From Candidatus Buchananbacteria bacterium (GTDB taxonomy: Bacteria > Patescibacteriota > Patescibacteriia > 2-01-FULL-39-33): a stretch of DNA of 38,539 nt. The translations under genes and the position numbers were made by a program. Each line of letters starts with the position of its first letter. Position 1 is the stretch's first letter. This document shows positions 5,158-36,191 of this stretch, one piece after another. The stretch is from contig CAIPBY010000012.1 in NCBI GenBank assembly GCA_903863425.1, forward strand, positions 1-38,539, read 5' to 3'. The notes under the pieces are model-generated. The model worked only from the letters and a program-made list of their open reading frames with translations. It ran no database searches and had not been told where the DNA came from.

Positions 5158-5167
5158 TGTTTTTTTT

Positions 5168-5203
5168 ACTTTATAACTTTTAACTTTTTAACTTTATAAC
5201 TAA
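5168..5203 (+). repeat. AACTTTAT-family repeat, 3' arm only, before ftsZ
   Basis: actttataacttttaactttttaactttataac-taa; final AAC is 8 nt before ftsZ ATG. Confidence 0.8.
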
Positions 5204-5208
5204 ACCAT

Positions 5209-6450
5209 ATGCCAGAAATAAAACCGGACATAGAGACTATTGCCAAAATAAAAGTCATCGGCGTAGGTGGTGCCGGAGGCTCAGCTATCAATCGCATGAT
5301 TGCTTCCAAGATAAAGGGAGTAGAATTTATTGCGATTAATACCGATATTCAGGCCTTGCATCAGAATGAGGCCAAGAAAAAATTACATATCGGCCAGAAG
5401 ACGACCCGAGGCTTGGGCGCTGGCATGAATCCGGAAGCCGGTTTGCAAGCCGCGCAGGAAAACATCAATGACATTAGGGAACTGCTTAAGGGCGCAGATA
5501 TGGTTTTTGTCACTTGCGGACTTGGCGGGGGCACTGGCACCGGAGCGTCTCCTGTGGTGGCTCAAATTGCCAAGGAGATGGGAGCGCTTACTGTGGCCGT
5601 TGTCACCAAGCCATTTTCATTTGAAGGCTCTCAGAGAGCCGCTGTGGCCGATAGAGGATTCAATGAATTGAAAGACAGAGTGGATACTATCATTACCATA
5701 CCCAACGATCGAGTGCTTCAGAATATAGACAAAAAAACTCCGCTTTTGGAAGCGTTTAAGGCTGTTGATGATATTTTGCGCCAAGGAGTCCAAGGCATTT
5801 CGGAATTAATTACTATGCCAGGATTAGTTAATGTGGATTTCGCTGATGTTAGAGCTATTATGCAAGATACGGGCTCGGCTTTGATGGGCATAGGAGAGGC
5901 CAGCGGGGAAAACAGAGGCATAACGGCGGCCAAGATGGCCATCTCCTCTCCGCTTTTGGACATTTCCATTGATGGCGCCAGAGGCATCTTATTTATAATC
6001 GTGGGCGGTCCCAGCTTGGCCATGAGCGAAGTGCATGAAGCGGCCAATATCATCTCGGCCAACGCCGATGAAAATGCCAAAATCATCTTCGGTTCAGTAA
6101 TCGATGAGAGTATGAAGGATAAGATTAGGATAACAGTCGTGGCCACCGGATTCGGCGAGACGGACAATATCAAGAAGCCTTCCAAGGCCAATGCCTACAC
6201 TCCTAACCCGGCATTTATCCACAAGAGCATCAATAATAATTTTAATTTGGAGTCAGAAGATTCTAGAAATAATGAATACGGCCCTATTTCCAACATTAAG
6301 ATTGAGAGAAACGAAGAGGAAGATGAACAAAGAGAGACTTATAGCCGGCCTCCGGTGCCCTCCCCATCCCCGATGCGAGCCCAAATGAAGATAATCCCTG
6401 AAGAGGATGACTTGGAAATTCCCGCATTTATTAGGAAAAAAATGAAATAA
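5209..6450 (+). CDS. ftsZ: Cell division protein FtsZ
   Basis: GGGTGTG tubulin signature, NVDFADV, C-terminal [10 protein letters not shown]. Confidence 0.99.
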
Positions 6451-6553: not shown

Positions 6554-6669
6554 GTTCCCTTTTTTCAGATTTTTGAGCGTTAAAAATAAGTTGCTTAATT
6601 GCCAGAGTTATCGGAAAATTATTCTGCCTTCGGCATTGACAAACAAAGATAAAAATTATTTTGACCATA

Positions 6670-9600
6670 ATGGAACCGAATCAAATCAATCAAATTAAGA
6701 AGCGAAATGGAGATATTGCGGATTTTGATCAGAGCAAGATAACTCTAGCAGTGTATAAGGCCATGAAGGCTGTGGGACGCGATGATGAGAAACTGGCGGA
6801 GGAGCTTTCCGAGAAGGTAATCCGGATGATCAATACTAAATTCCATCCCCGGTCTATACCGGCCATTGAAGAAGTTCAAGATGCGGTCGAAGAAGTGCTG
6901 ATCAAGGAGAATTTCGTCAAAGCGGCCAAGGCTTATATTATTTATCGCGAACAGCATTCTCGGCTGAGAGATATGAAGAAATTGCTCGATTCCAATGATA
7001 TTATCGAGGGCTATCTCAAGCAATTAGACTGGAGAGTCAAGGAAAATGCCAACATGGCTTATTCTCTTCAGGGGCTCAATAATCACGTAGCCTCGGCGGT
7101 TAGTTCTCATTATTGGCTCAATAAGATTTATCCGCCAGAAATTAGGCAGGCGCATGTTGATGGCGTAATTCATTTACATGATTTACAACTTTTGGCTGTG
7201 TATTGCTGTGGTTGGGATTTGCAAGCTTTGCTTCGATTAGGTTTTGGCGGCGTGCCAGGCAAAGTCAGCAGTAAGCCGGCCAAGCATTTGAGGGTGGCTC
7301 TGGGTCAGGCCGTGAATTTCTTCTATACTCTTCAGGGCGAGGCGGCCGGAGCGCAGGCTTTTGCTAATTTTGATACTCTGATGGCGCCGTTTATCCGATA
7401 TGACAAGATGGATGAGAAAGAAGTGAAGCAAGCCATGCAGGAATTTATTTTCGGTATGAGCGTGCCGACAAGAGTAGGATTTCAATGCTTGTCTCAAGAT
7501 ACAGAAATTTTAACCAAAGACGGATGGTGTGATTATAAAGGAATAAAAGAAAAGGACATTATTGCTACTTTTAATATTGAGCAAGGGATTATAGAATATT
7601 TGCCGGTTAAGCGTGTTTTTGCCAAAAAGTATAAAGGTAAAATGTATAATTTAACCAATCGCATCAGCGATCAGCTGATTTCTCCTGGTCATCGAGTGGT
7701 GCGTCGCCAGTTCAATGGAGGCGGTTATGTTTTGGAGCCCATAGAAAAGGTGTTAAAATTAAAATCCCCGTTTATTGTGCCTGTTGGCTCTGGCGGTAAT
7801 ATTTATGGCAAAAGTGATTTAAGCGATGCTTGGGTAAAAATGTTGGCCTGGGTGGTGGCTGAAGGCACCTTGGATAAAGGGGAGAGAGGCGCTGGACGCA
7901 TAAGTATTTATCAATCAAAAGATAAGAATGCGGATGATTATGAAGAAATAGTCGCCCTGTGTCAAGAACTGGGTCTTAAATATGCCGAAAGGATACAGAG
8001 TGGTTTGGGTGCCCAGTGTCAGGTTTTAAGATTTGACTCCATCGGAACCCAAAAAATTCTTAAATTTTTTGGTGGTAATAAATCTAAGGGCATTAAATTT
8101 ATTCCTCAAGAAATTTTAACTGCTGATGTGGAGACTGCTAGATTATTTTTGGAGACATATATTAAGGGTGATGGTCATGAAGAATGTAAAATTACAACAG
8201 TACATGAAAAAATCAAAGATGGACTAATGATGCTTTCGGCTAATGCCGGTTATGGTGCGACTGTTTATGTCCGCAAGCCGGAAGGCATATCTCGAAAAGA
8301 TAGATATATTATTCGGCTTATCAAGCATGTCGACACTTATATTAATGAAGTCAAAGAAGTTGATTATGATGGTGTTATTTGGTGTCCCAATACCGATAAT
8401 GAGACGGTTATTGCCAGGAGAAATGGCAAAATTTTTATTACCGGCAATACTCCATTTACTAACTTGACCTTTGATTTAATTTGTCCTTCGACTTTGGCCA
8501 GTGAAAGAGTTATAATAGGTGGCATACCCCAGAGCGAGACTTATGGTGAGTTCCAGAAGGAGATGGATATCATCAACAAGACCTTTGCCGAAGTGATGAT
8601 GGAAGGCGATGCCCATGGGCGCGTGTTTACCTTTCCTATTCCGACTTATAATATTACTCCTGAATTTGATTGGGATAATAAAGTCTTGGATTCCATTTGG
8701 GAGATGACGGCTAAGTATGGCATTCCTTATTTTGCCAACTTCGTCAATAGCGACATGAAGGCCGAGGACGCCAGGAGCATGTGCTGTCGTCTGCGTTTGG
8801 ATAATCGCGAGCTCCGCAAGCGTGGAGGCGGGATGTTTGCGGCTAATCCTCTGACCGGTTCTATCGGAGTAGTTACCATCAATTTGCCACGAATTGGATA
8901 TTTATCCAAAAATAACAAAGAAGCTTATTTGAATCGGCTCGGTCAAGCCATGGATTTAGCCAGGCAGAGCTTGACGCTTAAGCGGGAGATTCTGGAGAAT
9001 TTTACGGTCATGGGGCTTTATCCATACAGTAAATTTTATTTATCAGATATTAGGGAACGTTTCGGTGAGTATTGGAAGAATCATTTCAATACTATTGGCA
9101 TTAATGGCATGAATGAGTCTTTGATTAATTTTATGGGCAAGTCCATCAGCGATCCCGAGGCCTATGAATTTGCAGTCAAGATAATGGATTTTATGTTGGC
9201 TCGTATGGCTAATTATCAGGAAGAAGATAATCAATTATATAATTTGGAAGCCACGCCGGCCGAGGGAGTGACATATCGTTTCGCCAAGAAAGACAAAGAG
9301 CTTTATCCGGATATAATTGTAGCCAATGAAGACGCTTACCGAGACAAGGGAGCTGCTCCGTACTACACTAACTCCACCCACTTGCCGGTTAACTTCTCTA
9401 GTGATATATTTGAAGTGTTGGAGAAGCAAGACGGCTTGCAGACTAAGTATACCGGAGGTACAGTGGTTCATGGATTTATCGGAGAGAAAATGCCGGACAT
9501 CGAAAGTACCAAGCAGTTGGTCAAAAAGATTGCAGAAAGTTTCCATTTGCCGTATTATACACTTACACCTACATTTTCTATTTGTCCCAAGCACGGGTAT

Positions 9601-9684
9601 CTCTCTGGTGAGCATAGGTTCTGTCCGATCTGTGATGAGGAAATCGGTTTTGTGAGAGAGCAAGAGGATAAATTGGCTCTATAA
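6670..9684 (+). CDS. nrdD: Class III (anaerobic) ribonucleotide reductase large subunit with ATP-cone and intein; lacks the C-terminal glycyl-radical loop
   Basis: ATP-cone (IKKRNG..FDQSKI), HLHDL, YCCGW, RSMCCRL finger loop, EATPAEG, C-terminal CPKH..CPIC Zn site; start set to ATG 6670. Confidence 0.93.
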   Translation: MEPNQINQIKKRNGDIADFDQSKITLAVYKAMKAVGRDDEKLAEELSEKVIRMINTKFHPRSIPAIEEVQDAVEEVLIKENFVKAAKAYIIYREQHSRLRDMKKLLDSNDIIEGYLKQLDWRVKENANMAYSLQGLNNHVASAVSSHYWLNKIYPPEIRQAHVDGVIHLHDLQLLAVYCCGWDLQALLRLGFGGVPGKVSSKPAKHLRVALGQAVNFFYTLQGEAAGAQAFANFDTLMAPFIRYDKMDEKEVKQAMQEFIFGMSVPTRVGFQCLSQDTEILTKDGWCDYKGIKEKDIIATFNIEQGIIEYLPVKRVFAKKYKGKMYNLTNRISDQLISPGHRVVRRQFNGGGYVLEPIEKVLKLKSPFIVPVGSGGNIYGKSDLSDAWVKMLAWVVAEGTLDKGERGAGRISIYQSKDKNADDYEEIVALCQELGLKYAERIQSGLGAQCQVLRFDSIGTQKILKFFGGNKSKGIKFIPQEILTADVETARLFLETYIKGDGHEECKITTVHEKIKDGLMMLSANAGYGATVYVRKPEGISRKDRYIIRLIKHVDTYINEVKEVDYDGVIWCPNTDNETVIARRNGKIFITGNTPFTNLTFDLICPSTLASERVIIGGIPQSETYGEFQKEMDIINKTFAEVMMEGDAHGRVFTFPIPTYNITPEFDWDNKVLDSIWEMTAKYGIPYFANFVNSDMKAEDARSMCCRLRLDNRELRKRGGGMFAANPLTGSIGVVTINLPRIGYLSKNNKEAYLNRLGQAMDLARQSLTLKREILENFTVMGLYPYSKFYLSDIRERFGEYWKNHFNTIGINGMNESLINFMGKSISDPEAYEFAVKIMDFMLARMANYQEEDNQLYNLEATPAEGVTYRFAKKDKELYPDIIVANEDAYRDKGAAPYYTNSTHLPVNFSSDIFEVLEKQDGLQTKYTGGTVVHGFIGEKMPDIESTKQLVKKIAESFHLPYYTLTPTFSICPKHGYLSGEHRFCPICDEEIGFVREQEDKLAL
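7486..8448 (+). mobile_element. Intein (321 aa) with LAGLIDADG-type homing endonuclease in NrdD
   Basis: Starts CLSQDTEILT, has SPGHRV (block B His), MLAWVVAEG and FLETYIKGDG helices, ends FITGN; removal restores GFQ|TPFTN. Confidence 0.92.
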
Positions 9685-9842
9685 GTTATAAAGTTAAAAG
9701 TTATAAAGTTCATAAAGTTTTAGATAAAAGATATTGACTTTATTTAACTTATAATAATTAAATTATTTACTGATAGGGCGTCATAATGAAATAGATTTCT
9801 TTGAATTTACTTTATAACTTTATAACTTTTAACTTTATAAAC
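9685..9842 (+). repeat. AAGTTAT/ATAACTT-family fold-back element between nrdD and the glycyl-radical ORF
   Basis: Left arm gttataaagttaaaagttataaagttcataaagttt; right arm actttataactttataacttttaactttataaac. Confidence 0.85.
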
Positions 9843-9855
9843 TAAATATAACCAT

Positions 9856-10011
9856 ATGGAAGGTGAAAACAGACAGCAAAGGCAGGCGTGCGAAGTTTAT
9901 TCCCGCATCGTCGGCTACATTAGGCCCGTGGATCAATGGAATCCAGGCAAGCAATCAGAATTCGGGGACAGAACAACTTTCCAAGTCGGGGATTGCGGAT
10001 GCGGTAATTAA
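9856..10011 (+). CDS. Stand-alone NrdD glycyl-radical domain peptide (51 aa)
   Basis: MEGENRQQRQACEVYSRIVGYIRPVDQWNPGKQSEFGDR...DCGCGN; YSRIVGY..P...WN.GK..E...R matches the class III RNR Gly-radical signature; below the ORF-track cutoff. Confidence 0.9.
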   Translation: MEGENRQQRQACEVYSRIVGYIRPVDQWNPGKQSEFGDRTTFQVGDCGCGN

Positions 10012-10017
10012 TAAAGT

Positions 10018-10713
10018 ATGAAGATCGGGGGATTGCAACCAGTTACTATTTTGGATTATCCGCAAAAAGTGGCAGCGATTTTATTCACCGCAGGGTGCAA
10101 TATGCGCTGTCCTTTTTGTCATAATCCGGATTTGGTAATTCCGGAAAATATAGAGAAGTCCCATCTTTTGGATGAGAGTGAGCTTCTGACGTATTTGCAA
10201 AAAAGAAAGAAATATCTTGACGGCTTAGTTATAACCGGAGGAGAGCCAACTATGCAACCGGATATTATTGATTTTTGCCGGAAGGTGCATGAGATGGGTT
10301 ATGCCATTAAGCTGGATACTAACGGCCTGATGCCCGAAGTGCTAGAGAAATTATTGGAAGAAAAATTATTGGATTATCTGGCCATGGATCTTAAAGGCCC
10401 TGTGGATAAGTATGAGAAATTTTGCGGTATCAAGGCGGATTGTGATAAAATAAATAAAAGCATTAAGATCGTTAAGGACAGCGGTTTGCCATATGAGTTT
10501 CGCAGTACCCTGGTCAAGGGCTTGCATGACAAAGGTGATGTAGCGGAGATGGCTAAGGCAATCAAGGGAGCGAAATTGTATTATTTGCAGAATTTTAATT
10601 TTCAAGATAGGCTAGTTGATAGCGGTTTTTCGGGAAAGAGTTTTTTAGTCAAGGAGATTGAAAATTTGGCTAAGATAGTCCAAGAATTCATTAAAAATTG
10701 TAAAATAAGATAA
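10018..10713 (+). CDS. nrdG: Class III RNR activating enzyme (radical SAM)
   Basis: GCNMRCPFCHN CxxxCxxC, TGGEP, LDTNG; follows the nrdD locus. Confidence 0.93.
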   Translation: MKIGGLQPVTILDYPQKVAAILFTAGCNMRCPFCHNPDLVIPENIEKSHLLDESELLTYLQKRKKYLDGLVITGGEPTMQPDIIDFCRKVHEMGYAIKLDTNGLMPEVLEKLLEEKLLDYLAMDLKGPVDKYEKFCGIKADCDKINKSIKIVKDSGLPYEFRSTLVKGLHDKGDVAEMAKAIKGAKLYYLQNFNFQDRLVDSGFSGKSFLVKEIENLAKIVQEFIKNCKIR

Positions 10714-10717
10714 AATT

Positions 10718-11041
10718 ATGGAAATCAAGCCTCAAAATAGCCCTGCGGAGCCTCTAGAAAAAGGGGAGAGCCGAAATATGGCAAGCGCTCAAAAAGAGGA
10801 AAAAAGCGAATTAATCAGATTGGCCAAGGAGAATTTGGATTATACAAAATTAATTTATGAAGATACACAGAAAATCAGAAGGTTTATGTTTTGGCGTTTG
10901 ATTATAAATATATTCTGGATTATTTTAGTCATAGCTCCGATTATTGTGTCTTTAATCTGGTTGCCATCATTACTCAAGAATTATTCCCAAATGTTTACGG
11001 GCGGACAAAGCATGGATGAAATTTTTAAAATGTTAAAATAA
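10718..11041 (+). CDS. Hypothetical single-pass membrane protein
   Basis: 107-aa ORF filling the gap between nrdG and prfB, one hydrophobic helix. Confidence 0.7.
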   Translation: MEIKPQNSPAEPLEKGESRNMASAQKEEKSELIRLAKENLDYTKLIYEDTQKIRRFMFWRLIINIFWIILVIAPIIVSLIWLPSLLKNYSQMFTGGQSMDEIFKMLK

Positions 11042-18830: not shown

Positions 18831-18838
18831 GATATTTA

Positions 18839-18918
18839 GTTAAAAGTTTATAAAGTTATCAAGTTATAAAGTAAGTCCAAAGAAACTTTATGAACTTTCA
18901 ACTTTATAACTTTATAAC
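18839..18918 (-). repeat. AAGTTAT/ATAACTT-family element forming the rpmB 5' UTR
   Basis: Full fold-back; on the minus strand it ends AAC-TAAATATC-ATG. Confidence 0.85.
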
Positions 18919-18922
18919 TGAA

Positions 18923-18963
18923 ATCATAACAAATTTGTGCAAATAAGTCAATTATGTTATATT
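18923..18963. promoter_or_regulatory. Overlapping divergent promoters (rpmB on minus, M50 protease on plus)
   Basis: Minus: TTGACT-17-TATGAT (18923-18951); plus: TTGTGC-17-TATATT (18935-18963); both with extended TG. Confidence 0.55.
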
Positions 18964-20220: not shown

Positions 20221-20327
20221 TTGAAAGTTCATAAAGTTTATAAAGTTATAAAGTAGGACTCTATAAACTAGAATGAACTTTAAAATAGTATTTAACTTTA
20301 TAACTTGATAACTTTTAACTTTATAAC
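20220..20327 (+). repeat. AAGTTAT/ATAACTT-family element (rpsL-rpsG)
   Basis: Starts in the rpsL TAG, ends AAC 8 nt before rpsG ATG. Confidence 0.85.
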
Positions 20328-20335
20328 TTAAATTT

Positions 20336-20803
20336 ATGCGAGGTAAACCAGCAACAAAAAGAAAAATAAAACCAGATAGCAAATTCAATCAAGAAAATAT
20401 TGCTAAATTCATTAATTATATAATGGAAAGAGGCAAGAAGGCCACGGCCGAGAAGATTGTTTATGAAGCCATGGATTTGATTTCCCAGAAGACCAAGCTA
20501 GATCCTTTGGATGTGTTCAATACTGCGATGCAAAACATTTCTCCATCTGTAGAAATCAAAGGTAAAAGAGTTGGTGGCGCTAACTATCAAGTTCCAGTCG
20601 CCGTACGATCGGAGAGAAGTTTGACTTTGGGAAGCAGATGGTTGATTGCAGCTGCCAAAGCCAGAAAAGGCAAGAAGATGGCTGAAAAATTAGCTGATGA
20701 AGTTATTAATGCTTACAACAATGAAGGTACAGCGATCAAGAAGAAGCAGGATACTTATAGAATGGCTGAAGCCAATCGTGCTTTTGCGCATTTTTCTAGA
20801 TAA
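20336..20803 (+). CDS. rpsG: 30S ribosomal protein S7
   Basis: RVGGANYQVP, MAEANRAFAHF. Confidence 0.99.
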   Translation: MRGKPATKRKIKPDSKFNQENIAKFINYIMERGKKATAEKIVYEAMDLISQKTKLDPLDVFNTAMQNISPSVEIKGKRVGGANYQVPVAVRSERSLTLGSRWLIAAAKARKGKKMAEKLADEVINAYNNEGTAIKKKQDTYRMAEANRAFAHFSR

Positions 20804-31769: not shown

Positions 31770-32018
31770 ATGAGTGAAGAAAAAAAAGTAACTAGCAGGA
31801 AGTTTAAGGGTGAGGTTGTTTCTAATAAAATGACTAAGACTATTGTGGTTAAAGTTGAGTCCTTTAAATTGCATCCTAAATATAAGAAGAGATACAAGGT
31901 AAGTAGCAAATATAAGGTTCATGACGAATTAGGAATATGCAAAGTCGGGGATAAAATTGAATTTATGGAATGCCGACCAATGAGCAAAGATAAGCGATGG
32001 ACAGTAATAAATAAATAG
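31770..32018 (+). CDS. rpsQ: 30S ribosomal protein S17
   Basis: KMTKTIVV, HPKYKK, RPMSKDKRW. Confidence 0.98.
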   Translation: MSEEKKVTSRKFKGEVVSNKMTKTIVVKVESFKLHPKYKKRYKVSSKYKVHDELGICKVGDKIEFMECRPMSKDKRWTVINK

Positions 32019-32119
32019 TTCATAAAGTTATAAAGTTCATAAAGTTAAAAGAAATGCAAAAACATCAAAACAATTATTAATTGACTTTATAAACTTTACT
32101 AACTTTATAAACTTTCAAC
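32018..32119 (+). repeat. AAGTTAT/ATAACTT-family element (rpsQ-rplN)
   Basis: TA-GTT...AAC-TA; ends 8 nt before ATG. Confidence 0.85.
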
Positions 32120-33617: not shown

Positions 33618-34016
33618 ATGACAGATCCAATTGCAGACATGCTTACTCGAATCAGAAATGCTTCCAGAGTCAAGAAGGCGGAGGTTTTTATTCCATTTTC
33701 CAAAATAAAATTGGCTATTATTAAAATTATGAAATCTCATGGTCTTATTGAAGGATATAGCGAGATTAAGCCAGGAGAAGACAATAAATTCGGCGGTATA
33801 ATGATAAATCTTAAATATGAAGATGGCAAACCAGCCATATCCAGCCTGAAGAGAATTTCTAAGCCAGGAAGAAGGGTTTATGTAGCCAAAGATGAAATGC
33901 CTAATGTTTTGAATAATTTCGGATTGGCCATAGTTTCCACTTCACAAGGATTATTCACCAACAAAGAGGCCAAAAAGATGGGTCTTGGCGGAGAAGTGAT
34001 TTGCGAAATATACTAA
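33618..34016 (+). CDS. rpsH: 30S ribosomal protein S8
   Basis: DPIADMLTRIRNA, SKPGRRVY. Confidence 0.99.
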   Translation: MTDPIADMLTRIRNASRVKKAEVFIPFSKIKLAIIKIMKSHGLIEGYSEIKPGEDNKFGGIMINLKYEDGKPAISSLKRISKPGRRVYVAKDEMPNVLNNFGLAIVSTSQGLFTNKEAKKMGLGGEVICEIY

Positions 34017-34020
34017 TTAA

Positions 34021-34109
34021 GTTAAAAGTTATAAAGTTTATCAAGTTCATAAAGATAATGCAAATACTAATTAAAAATTTAACTTTCTAACTTTATAAAC
34101 TTTACGAAC
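34021..34109 (+). repeat. AAGTTAT/ATAACTT-family element (rpsH-rplF)
   Basis: TAA-GTT...AAC-TAA; ends 8 nt before ATG. Confidence 0.85.
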
Positions 34110-34117
34110 TAAACTAT

Positions 34118-34663
34118 ATGAGCAGAATAGGAAAACAATTAATAAGCATTCCCAGCGAAGTTGATTTCAAGATTGACGATGGCTTTGTAGTTATCAAAGG
34201 ACCAAAAGGAGAACTCAAGCAATTTATCCATCCCCAGGTGATAGTTGAATCCAAAGATGGAGTTATTACTGTCAAAGTGCAGGATGAAAATGACAAAAGT
34301 CAAAGAGCTCTTTGGGGTTTGTACGGTAGTTTGGTTAAGAATATGGTAACTGGAGTAACTGTTGGTTTCGTAGAAAAATTAGAAATCAATGGAGTCGGCA
34401 TGAAAGCCGCAGTAGCTGGTAATAAGTTGATTTTAAATGTTGGTTTTTCTCATCCAGTAGAATATAATATACCTGTTGGGATGCAAATAACCGTAGAAGG
34501 CAATATCATTTCCATTGGTGGTATAGACAAACAGGTTGTCGGTGAAATTGCTGCTCAAATCAGAAAGATTAAGAAAGTTGAGCCATACAAAGGCAAAGGC
34601 ATTAAGTATGTCGGCGAGCAAGTTCGTCGCAAGGCTGGTAAAGCTGCCGCAAAAGCTAAATAG
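34118..34663 (+). CDS. rplF: 50S ribosomal protein L6
   Basis: MSRIGK, EPYKGKGI. Confidence 0.99.
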   Translation: MSRIGKQLISIPSEVDFKIDDGFVVIKGPKGELKQFIHPQVIVESKDGVITVKVQDENDKSQRALWGLYGSLVKNMVTGVTVGFVEKLEINGVGMKAAVAGNKLILNVGFSHPVEYNIPVGMQITVEGNIISIGGIDKQVVGEIAAQIRKIKKVEPYKGKGIKYVGEQVRRKAGKAAAKAK

Positions 34664-35030: not shown

Positions 35031-35555
35031 ATGAATACAAAAGACAGCAGAAGAAAAAATCCTAGACTAAAAAAGGAAGAACCTGAATACCAACAGCAAA
35101 TTGTTGATATTGCTAGAGTTACTCGTGTTATGGCTGGTGGCAAAAGAATGAGCTTTCGAGCTTGCGTAGTTATCGGCGACAAAAAGGGAAAAGTGGGAAT
35201 GGGACTAGCCAAAGCCAAAGATGTTCCCATGGCCGTGCAAAAAGGCGTAAGACAAGCTGAGAAAAATCTTATCAAAGTAAATACTGTAAATGGTACTATA
35301 CCTCATGAAGTTTATGTCAAACTTGGCGCAGCCAAAGTGCTTTTGAAACCAGCTCCTCTTGGTACTGGTATTATTTCTGGAGGCGCAGCGAGATTGGTTC
35401 TTGAATTGGCTGGAATTGAAAATATTGTTTCCAAGATTTTGGGTACCAATAATAAAGTCAATAATGTTAGAGCGACTCTTAGGGCTTTGGAGATGCTTAA
35501 GAAGAAAAAAAAGAAGAATGAGAATATAGAAGATAAAGAGAAGGAAATAAAATAA
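35031..35555 (+). CDS. rpsE: 30S ribosomal protein S5
   Basis: RVTRVMAGGKR, PAPLGTGII. Confidence 0.98.
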   Translation: MNTKDSRRKNPRLKKEEPEYQQQIVDIARVTRVMAGGKRMSFRACVVIGDKKGKVGMGLAKAKDVPMAVQKGVRQAEKNLIKVNTVNGTIPHEVYVKLGAAKVLLKPAPLGTGIISGGAARLVLELAGIENIVSKILGTNNKVNNVRATLRALEMLKKKKKKNENIEDKEKEIK

Positions 35556-35651
35556 GTTCATAAAGTTATAAAGTTCATAAAGTTATAAAGTAAATACAAA
35601 AAATAATTAAGAATTAAACTTTATAACTTTCAACTTTATAAACTTAATAAC
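35556..35651 (+). repeat. AAGTTAT/ATAACTT-family element (rpsE-rplO, at the usual rpmD position)
   Basis: TAA-GTT...AAC-TAA; ends 8 nt before ATG. Confidence 0.85.
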
Positions 35652-35659
35652 TAAATTAT

Positions 35660-36109
35660 ATGTCATTAAACTTATCAAATTTAAAGCCAGCCAAAGGCTC
35701 GACCAAAAAGAAAAAGAGAATTGGTCGTGGAGGCAAAAGAGGCGCTTACTCTGGCAAGGGTATGAAAGGCCAAAAGGCTAGAAGCGGTGTTTCCGGTTTG
35801 AAGGCCTTGGGTTTCAGACAAACACTACTGCGAACTCCAAAGAGCAGAGGATTTCGAAGTATCAAGCCAAAGATGCCAGTCGTTGATATTGTCAGATTAG
35901 AGAAGAAAGTAGAAGATGGCGCTACTATCGACCTGAAAAAAATGAAAAGACTCAGTCTGGTTGAATCCAATATTAAATCAGTCAAAGTTATTGGTAAAGG
36001 AGAATTAACCAAGAAGTTAACTGTTATCGCCGACGGATATTCTGCAGGAGCCAAAGAATCAATTGAAAAAGCTGGCGGAAAGGCAGAGATTAAAGTAAAA
36101 AGTTCATAA
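35660..36109 (+). CDS. rplO: 50S ribosomal protein L15
   Basis: RIGRG, GKGMKGQKARSG, IEKAGG. Confidence 0.98.
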   Translation: MSLNLSNLKPAKGSTKKKKRIGRGGKRGAYSGKGMKGQKARSGVSGLKALGFRQTLLRTPKSRGFRSIKPKMPVVDIVRLEKKVEDGATIDLKKMKRLSLVESNIKSVKVIGKGELTKKLTVIADGYSAGAKESIEKAGGKAEIKVKSS

Positions 36110-36181
36110 AGTTTATAAAGTTCATAAAGTTGGGGAAGAAATCCATAACTTTATAACTTTCAACTTTATAACTTTATAAAC
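36102..36181 (+). repeat. AAGTTAT/ATAACTT-family element (rplO-secY); left arm supplies the rplO stop
   Basis: GTTCATAAAGTTTATAAAG...ACTTTATAAAC; ends 10 nt before ATG. Confidence 0.85.
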
Positions 36182-36191
36182 TAAAGTTTAT

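Follow-up and report, generated by a model that had tools for sequence, protein, structure and literature searches.

The class III ribonucleotide reductases (RNRs) closest to the enzyme described here, the NrdD/NrdG systems of T. maritima (4COI/4U3E), P. copri (8P23) and phage T4 (1H78), have a single-chain NrdD with a barrel, a double-cysteine finger loop, a zinc site and a glycyl-radical loop. In 4COI, which is one chain, the zinc site ends at residue 610 and the radical loop occupies residues 616-646 of 651, and in 8P23 the loop occupies residues 712-738 of 743. In a 38,539-nucleotide (nt) contig of Candidatus Buchananbacteria bacterium (CAIPBY010000012.1, assembly GCA_903863425.1; hereafter the window) the same barrel, finger loop and zinc site are encoded by nrdD, accompanied by a like radical-loop sequence and an NrdG2-type activase, but a stop codon, a 171-nt spacer and a new start lie between the zinc site and the loop, with conserved extensions at both new ends. 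The functional enzyme is very probably made up of two separately translated chains and the activase. A three-component RNR had been proposed in a first-pass annotation of the window, and this three-gene enzyme (body, radical peptide and activase) is supported by conservation, purifying selection and the absence of any other RNR.

Body, radical peptide and activase

The nrdD body (1004 amino acids; 6670..9684, forward strand) combines an ATP-cone, a catalytic barrel whose finger loop reads M-C-C-R, and the zinc site. The ATG at 6670 agrees with the N-termini of relatives, the earliest start codon of the frame being a TTG at 6661, and the frame ends with TAA at 9682-9684, 16 residues past the zinc site. 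The barrel lies over the curated NrdD family cut-offs, matching Pfam NRDD (E 2e-174, 581.8 bits, cut-off 26.2) and NCBIfam NF006126 (995.4 bits, cut-off 548), with a further match to the ATP-cone (1.4e-18). The zinc-site codons C-P-K-H ... C-P-I-C (9583..9633, forward strand) correspond in alignments to the metal-binding residues of NrdD chains of known structure, the C-x2-H ... C-x2-C pattern supplying four ligands in register with the cysteines that form this site in 4COI and 8P23. As in the majority of relatives, a His serves as second ligand. The body then closes with the tail D-E-E-I-G-F-V-R-E-Q-E-D-K-L-A-L and TAA (9634..9684, forward strand), which is kept in family relatives and not in fused forms. 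No R-x-x-G-Y loop was found when the nrdD frame (6670..9684) was searched for one.

The glycyl-radical domain is instead encoded by a separate open reading frame (ORF) of 51 amino acids (9856..10011, forward strand, stop at 10009-10011). In the 562-position Pfam NRDD profile the body ends at position 531 and this ORF covers positions 531-562 (E 5.3e-10, 39 bits, cut-off 26.2), while in the 684-position NF006126 profile the body ends at 653 and the peptide spans 648-683. The predicted radical residue, Gly20 (9913-9915), lies in R-I-V-G-Y, a conserved Cys12 is encoded at 9889-9891 and a C-terminal C-G-C at 9994-10002. After a gap of 6 nt follows the ATG of nrdG (10018..10713, forward strand), a radical S-adenosylmethionine activase of NrdG2 type (TIGR02495 220.6 bits, cut-off 131.15). 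The first-pass annotation had reported both the NrdD that ends shortly after its zinc site without R-x-x-G-Y and the radical-loop ORF placed immediately before nrdG, and the ORFs, Pfam and NCBIfam bear it out. Small ORFs homologous to the peptide carry the NCBI and JGI name 'anaerobic ribonucleoside-triphosphate reductase'.

The typical host start context claimed for the peptide in that annotation was also recovered, the repeat arm ahead of its ATG being found directly ahead of the ATGs at 5209, 20336, 34118 and 36192. Only four of the 28 long ORFs of the window have a Shine-Dalgarno-like word upstream of the start. Start contexts are AT-rich, and in the spacers of many relatives a word resembling T-T-A-T-T-A-A-T-A-A precedes the ATG by 15-20 nt.

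The window genome (G000) is 98.8% complete and has only one copy of the radical domain. Searches of it for the class I/II RNR domain PF02867 and for the pyruvate formate-lyase (PFL)-like and Gly_radical (PF01228) domains found none of these, and as judged from its gene content the split class III RNR is the organism's only RNR.

Conservation and spread of the split

A search for PF13597 in the window genome and 40 relatives matched 30 of the 41 genomes. The first-pass annotation had held that a continuous nrdD in close relatives would tell against the split; all 22 family relatives with nrdD have it split, at profile position about 531, and split genes also occur outside the family, in G025, G035, G038 and G039, which represent four further families of the class. 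Fused nrdD was seen among the relatives only in G026 and G037, with the gene of G027 interrupted by a contig end. Bodies of the window's family end in C-D-x-E-x-G-[FY]-x-R-E-Q-x-x-K-L-P-[LI] and the peptides begin with M-E-G-[DE], whereas peptides of other families begin differently and fused forms have just 4-7 linker residues between zinc site and radical domain. The possibility that M-E-G-[DE] encodes a Shine-Dalgarno word serving a start further downstream was considered and rejected, there being no start codon after it and the motif being confined to the window's family.

The ratio of nonsynonymous to synonymous substitution rates (dN/dS) of the peptide was 0.02-0.05 in four of five within-genus pairs, the fifth being saturated at synonymous sites, and the 16-residue body tail has kept its residues through 7-10 synonymous differences. 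Across 80 stand-alone sequences, fifteen columns of the peptide show no variation. The C-terminal C-G-C, for which a redox or metal site had been suggested, did not hold up as a conserved redox site and is accessory at best: of 20 aligned relatives, eight have a CxC or CxxC tail, four a lone Cys and eight no Cys. Nor is Cys12 specific to split enzymes, many fused relatives having a Cys directly before E-V-Y-S-R.

The NCBI names of the nearest peptide clusters are Patescibacteria, Parcubacteria or Buchananbacteria. A profile of the 80 stand-alone peptides, run on the window genome and an even sample of 400 phylum genomes, matched 113 of the 401. The radical domain lay in a frame of at most 130 amino acids in 72 of the 113 (G117 and G384 having a fused copy as well), only in a frame of at least 600 amino acids in 36, and in a frame of 231-355 amino acids in three, the other two genomes giving weak matches only. 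In a library of 1.84 billion proteins the profile matched 5034 at E 0.001 or better; among the best 150 cluster representatives of these matches, 147 were of at most 130 amino acids, two of 146-149 and one of 711.

Three kinds of break were read from 20 divergent split loci. At 12 loci, as in the window, the break lies past the full zinc site with longer tails on both chains (type A). At L060, L063, L066 and L067 the body stops within the second zinc knuckle and the peptide opens with the missing cysteine (K-C-G-K-K-T-L-V-Y-S-R; type B), and at L068-L071 the break precedes that knuckle, the whole C-P-F-C-G-S being on the peptide (type C). A quick IQ-TREE of 99 bodies was built on 535 barrel columns with the zinc and radical region omitted, from loci hand-picked, non-randomly, from the phylum scan, with 10 of the 109 body ORFs dropped as partial or masked. 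This tree requires six changes between fused and split, and its well-supported branches alone force at least two origins of type A; as its root is unknown, fission and re-fusion are indistinguishable. The tree also contains a clade of fused NrdD paralogues (support 100) in which V-V-G-K replaces V-G-Y at the radical loop (L048 4428-6749 and L101 261-2444, both reverse strand), adjoining a second nrdD in both genomes.

Additional copies of the peptide gene were found in cellular genomes. In three family relatives a second gene (L049 2535-2687; L050 1651-1821; L051 2416-2574) lies between IscU (NifU_N) and a class-V aminotransferase (cysteine desulfurase), downstream of an Rrf2 regulator, this context being confirmed with Pfam for G005 and taken from sequence likeness for G009 and G016. 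The isc locus of the window genome holds Rrf2, IscU and a 79-amino-acid ORF that is Nfu-like by eye, with no second peptide copy. In G117 an intact fused nrdD is followed by an 89-amino-acid protein with a C-x2-C...C-x2-C ribbon and a radical domain (L047 3542-3811) and then by nrdG, while G384 has one fused nrdD paralogue and one split. IMG/VR gave 229 candidate stretches, 209 of which encode a relative. The best 80 of these viral loci (L126-L205), taken with flanks of up to 4 kb, comprise 69 frames of at most 130 amino acids (55 distinct), five of 131-200 and six fused, and none of the 74 non-fused loci has an NrdD body or NrdG-like ORF in those flanks. Orphan radical peptides of 41-130 amino acids make up the bulk of the best viral matches, and ribbon and radical-domain proteins like that of G117 occur on viral contigs (L148, L172, L178, L187).

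Other features of the locus include an in-frame intein of 321 amino acids in nrdD (7486..8448, forward strand), with Cys first and Asn last before a Thr, inserted exactly where a Q and a T adjoin in intein-free relatives. It matches intein families only weakly (intein_Nterm 17.9 bits, cut-off 24.5; LAGLIDADG_3 16.8 bits, cut-off 22.5) and probably carries a LAGLIDADG endonuclease. An insert is present at the same profile position (about 157) in G011 and G023, and nrdD has breaks or inserts near profile position 263-272 in G004, G007 and G020. Directly after nrdG lies an ORF of 107 amino acids (10718-11041) with a hydrophobic stretch, matched by no NCBIfam family.

The modelled complex and competing explanations

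A complex of the body (683 amino acids) and peptide (52 amino acids) of the same-genus relative G001 was modelled with custom alignments in three runs and three controls. The interface score (interaction prediction score from aligned errors, ipSAE) was 0.86 in all three runs compared with 0.00 for the best of the three controls. Of 80 solved complexes, 58 reached the mark used, as did 2 of 110 mismatched pairs, counts that are only a rough guide here. The runs had at least 88% of contacts in common, 177-182 contact pairs and a partner pLDDT (predicted local distance difference test) of 74-75. In the model, a peptide segment (residues 10-16) is paired with two segments of the body's zinc ribbon (647-651 and 659-664), and Cys12 contacts the zinc ligands C651 and C664. 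Cys12 might have a role at the metal site.

The enzyme works most probably as follows. After removal of the intein the 1004-residue body product would provide the ATP-cone, the barrel with its thiyl-radical finger loop and the zinc ribbon, and the 51-residue peptide the glycyl-radical loop. The peptide is predicted to dock through strand pairing with two parts of the body, the zinc ribbon and the short C-D-x-E-x-G-[FY] extension, and would thereby bring Gly20 into the barrel. NrdG would take a hydrogen from Gly20, with the radical installed on either the free or the bound peptide, and the cysteine of the finger loop would then receive the radical, as it does in the single-chain form. The likely pay-off would be that the chain entering the activase and cleaved by oxygen can be made and replaced separately.

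Several points weigh against this account. Body and peptide are known as predicted gene products, and a search for RNA data covering this stretch listed none. The docking result may be no more than an echo of the solved single-chain NrdD structures (4COI, 8P23), and the tool itself warns of this for the halves of split genes. The profile of the peptide had no match among solved structures at E 0.01 and at E 10 matched 4COI/4U3E (0.013) and 8P23 (0.21). Two conserved elements, the end of the body tail (R-E-Q-E-x-K-L-P-L) and the start of the peptide (M-E-G-[DE]), are left unplaced by the model, so that part of the conserved sequence goes unexplained, and the finger loop is not among the confidently placed contacts. 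Lastly, the sequencing runs with which the assembly was checked (X1-X4, below) come from one study and X1 is possibly the source of the assembly, so the check is not fully independent.

It is very improbable that a single polypeptide is made after all by way of an intron, translational bypass or stop read-through, or that the split is an assembly artefact. In favour of such a product, the two ORFs of the window are in one frame (171 nt, 57 codons) and the AT-rich spacer (9685..9855, no strand assigned), which has a perfect 25-nt inverted repeat (9686-9710 / 9816-9840), folds into a long hairpin (-59.2 kcal/mol, z -3.2). However, there are many stops of the nrdD frame within the spacer, and the relatives show all three frame relations (0/1/2 in 5/5/11 of 21 loci with stop-to-ATG gaps of 17-171 nt, three further loci having gaps of 15, 23 and 23 nt), on which grounds read-through, bypass and introns are excluded. 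An Rfam scan of 9300-10300 by E-value gave five matches, all far under gathering scores and none an intron. The hairpin belongs to an intergenic repeat found at 15 sites of the genome with at most three mismatches, compared with none for a reversed control, and G001 has a 44-nt spacer without inverted repeat; the long gap of the window is therefore attributed to an ordinary intergenic repeat in a pre-existing spacer. As to an assembly error, which the first-pass annotation had wanted checked against reads, contigs of runs X2 (9495-10119) and X3 (9515-10289) and two overlapping contigs of X4 (9300-9779, 9760-9990) cross stop, spacer and peptide with no differences, the X1 contig covers the whole stretch, and the split stands.

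The repeat itself occupies intergenic spacers genome-wide as an AT-rich palindrome, with one arm often abutting the ATG of the next gene. Its sites in the window are 5165-5204, 9686-9840, 18832-18930, 20225-20336, 32007-32113, 34014-34118, 35555-35649 and 36092-36185, and similar words come after nrdD in other genera (L018, L031, L039). Its role might be that of an RNA hairpin or of a regulatory site; a consensus scan found no promoter or terminator inside 9685-9855, its totals being at chance (four promoter-like sites, 4.4 expected).

That nrdD is a decaying gene without its radical domain, the small ORF being a remnant and deoxyribonucleoside triphosphates (dNTPs) being obtained by salvage, is more improbable still. 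Bacteria with such small genomes often rely on other cells, and products known only as genes would suit decay as well, but the low dN/dS of the peptide, the keeping of the split across families, the retention of nrdG directly downstream and a body score far above the family cut-off are all at odds with it.

For the two-chain enzyme, the question is then whether the peptide is ever exchanged. It is possible, if somewhat less than probable, that it serves as a consumable radical cartridge, which NrdG loads off the enzyme, which plugs in through the zinc ribbon and which is swapped after oxygen cleavage. Circumstantial support for a replaceable part comes from the copies in iron-sulfur operons of three relatives, the peptide beside the intact nrdD of G117 and the viral orphans. 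If so, the copies in Rrf2-controlled iron-sulfur operons would be repair supplies and the viral orphans boosters for a host body. The same data can be set against a neutral gene fission, giving a permanent tight heterodimer that acts like the single-chain enzyme and brings no benefit, with a peptide never exchanged or activated off the enzyme, which we likewise regard as possible at a little under even probability. It would be in keeping with the large modelled interface, with the single peptide copy of the window genome, which sits in the operon directly before nrdG, and with the general expectation that such a change is fixable in small genomes under weak selection. It accords less well with three distinct break points around the zinc site (after it, inside its second knuckle and before that knuckle), with the minimum of six fused/split changes in the body tree, with the extra copies between IscU and cysteine desulfurase, with the ribbon protein adjoining the intact nrdD of G117 and with the 74 of the best 80 viral loci where the domain has neither body nor activase in the flanks, although none of these proves a benefit.

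Subtype and relation to known systems

The S-M-C-C-R of the window body aligns with C-C-R of 4COI, making the finger loop one of the MCCR form among the two motif classes (MGCR and MCCR) of PMC9669993, section 2.5, and the Glu in its T-P-A-E falls on that of P-A-E in the T. maritima enzyme, this being presumably the proposed proton-donor Glu. To the first-pass annotation the loop and the Glu had suggested a redoxin-dependent subtype. The alignments agree with both features, but that label is too narrow, as formate and thioredoxin both appear usable by enzymes with MCCR, which make up most of the double-cysteine type (PMC9669993, section 2.5). With no PFL found there is no obvious internal source of formate, which would favour a redoxin as the reductant.

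A search of article full texts, supplementary trees and tables aside, turned up no account of a class III RNR in split form, and the detached-radical-peptide design was in that sense not found described in print. An NrdD radical domain that occurs detached in nature would give NrdG a native substrate of about 50 residues, with which one could ask whether activation takes place on or off the enzyme and could test radical transfer between chains directly. It might also help to account for how tiny anaerobes at oxic-anoxic boundaries keep their sole source of dNTPs after oxygen pulses. Annotators should not take a body ending at the zinc site for a pseudogene, and ORFs of 45-60 amino acids are easily overlooked.

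Splitting of an RNR between polypeptides has parallels in other classes. The large subunit encoded by nrdA of Aeromonas phage Aeh1 reportedly works as two polypeptides encoded by genes in pieces, the split having been caused by a homing-endonuclease gene situated between the halves. In contrast, the spacer of the window holds no ORF of at least 30 amino acids beyond chance frames, and spacers are of 15-171 nt across relatives. The split class II enzyme NrdJa/NrdJb of Pseudomonas aeruginosa has a naturally two-chain catalytic subunit with a C-terminal functional module on the second chain (PMC9669993, citing Crona et al. 2015), but belongs to another RNR class with another radical source.

A parallel in design is GrcA/YfiD, a free-standing small homologue of the PFL radical domain that is activated by the PFL activase, as described in a 2026 review (PMC13450708). 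The window peptide is likewise a small stand-alone radical-domain homologue (51 amino acids, NRDD positions 531-562), but Pfam assigns it to NRDD only and not to the Gly_radical family of PFL (PF01228). GrcA backs up an intact PFL after oxygen cleavage, and according to the same review spare-part proteins are known only for formate lyases (PMC13450708). Were the peptide an exchangeable cartridge, it would be the first spare-part system outside formate lyases and the majority class III RNR design of a whole phylum. Since the window body has no radical domain of its own, its peptide is obligatory, unlike GrcA, and coexistence with a parent that retains the domain is found not in the window genome but in G117, whose 89-residue zinc-ribbon and radical-domain protein beside an intact nrdD is the closer analogue of GrcA.

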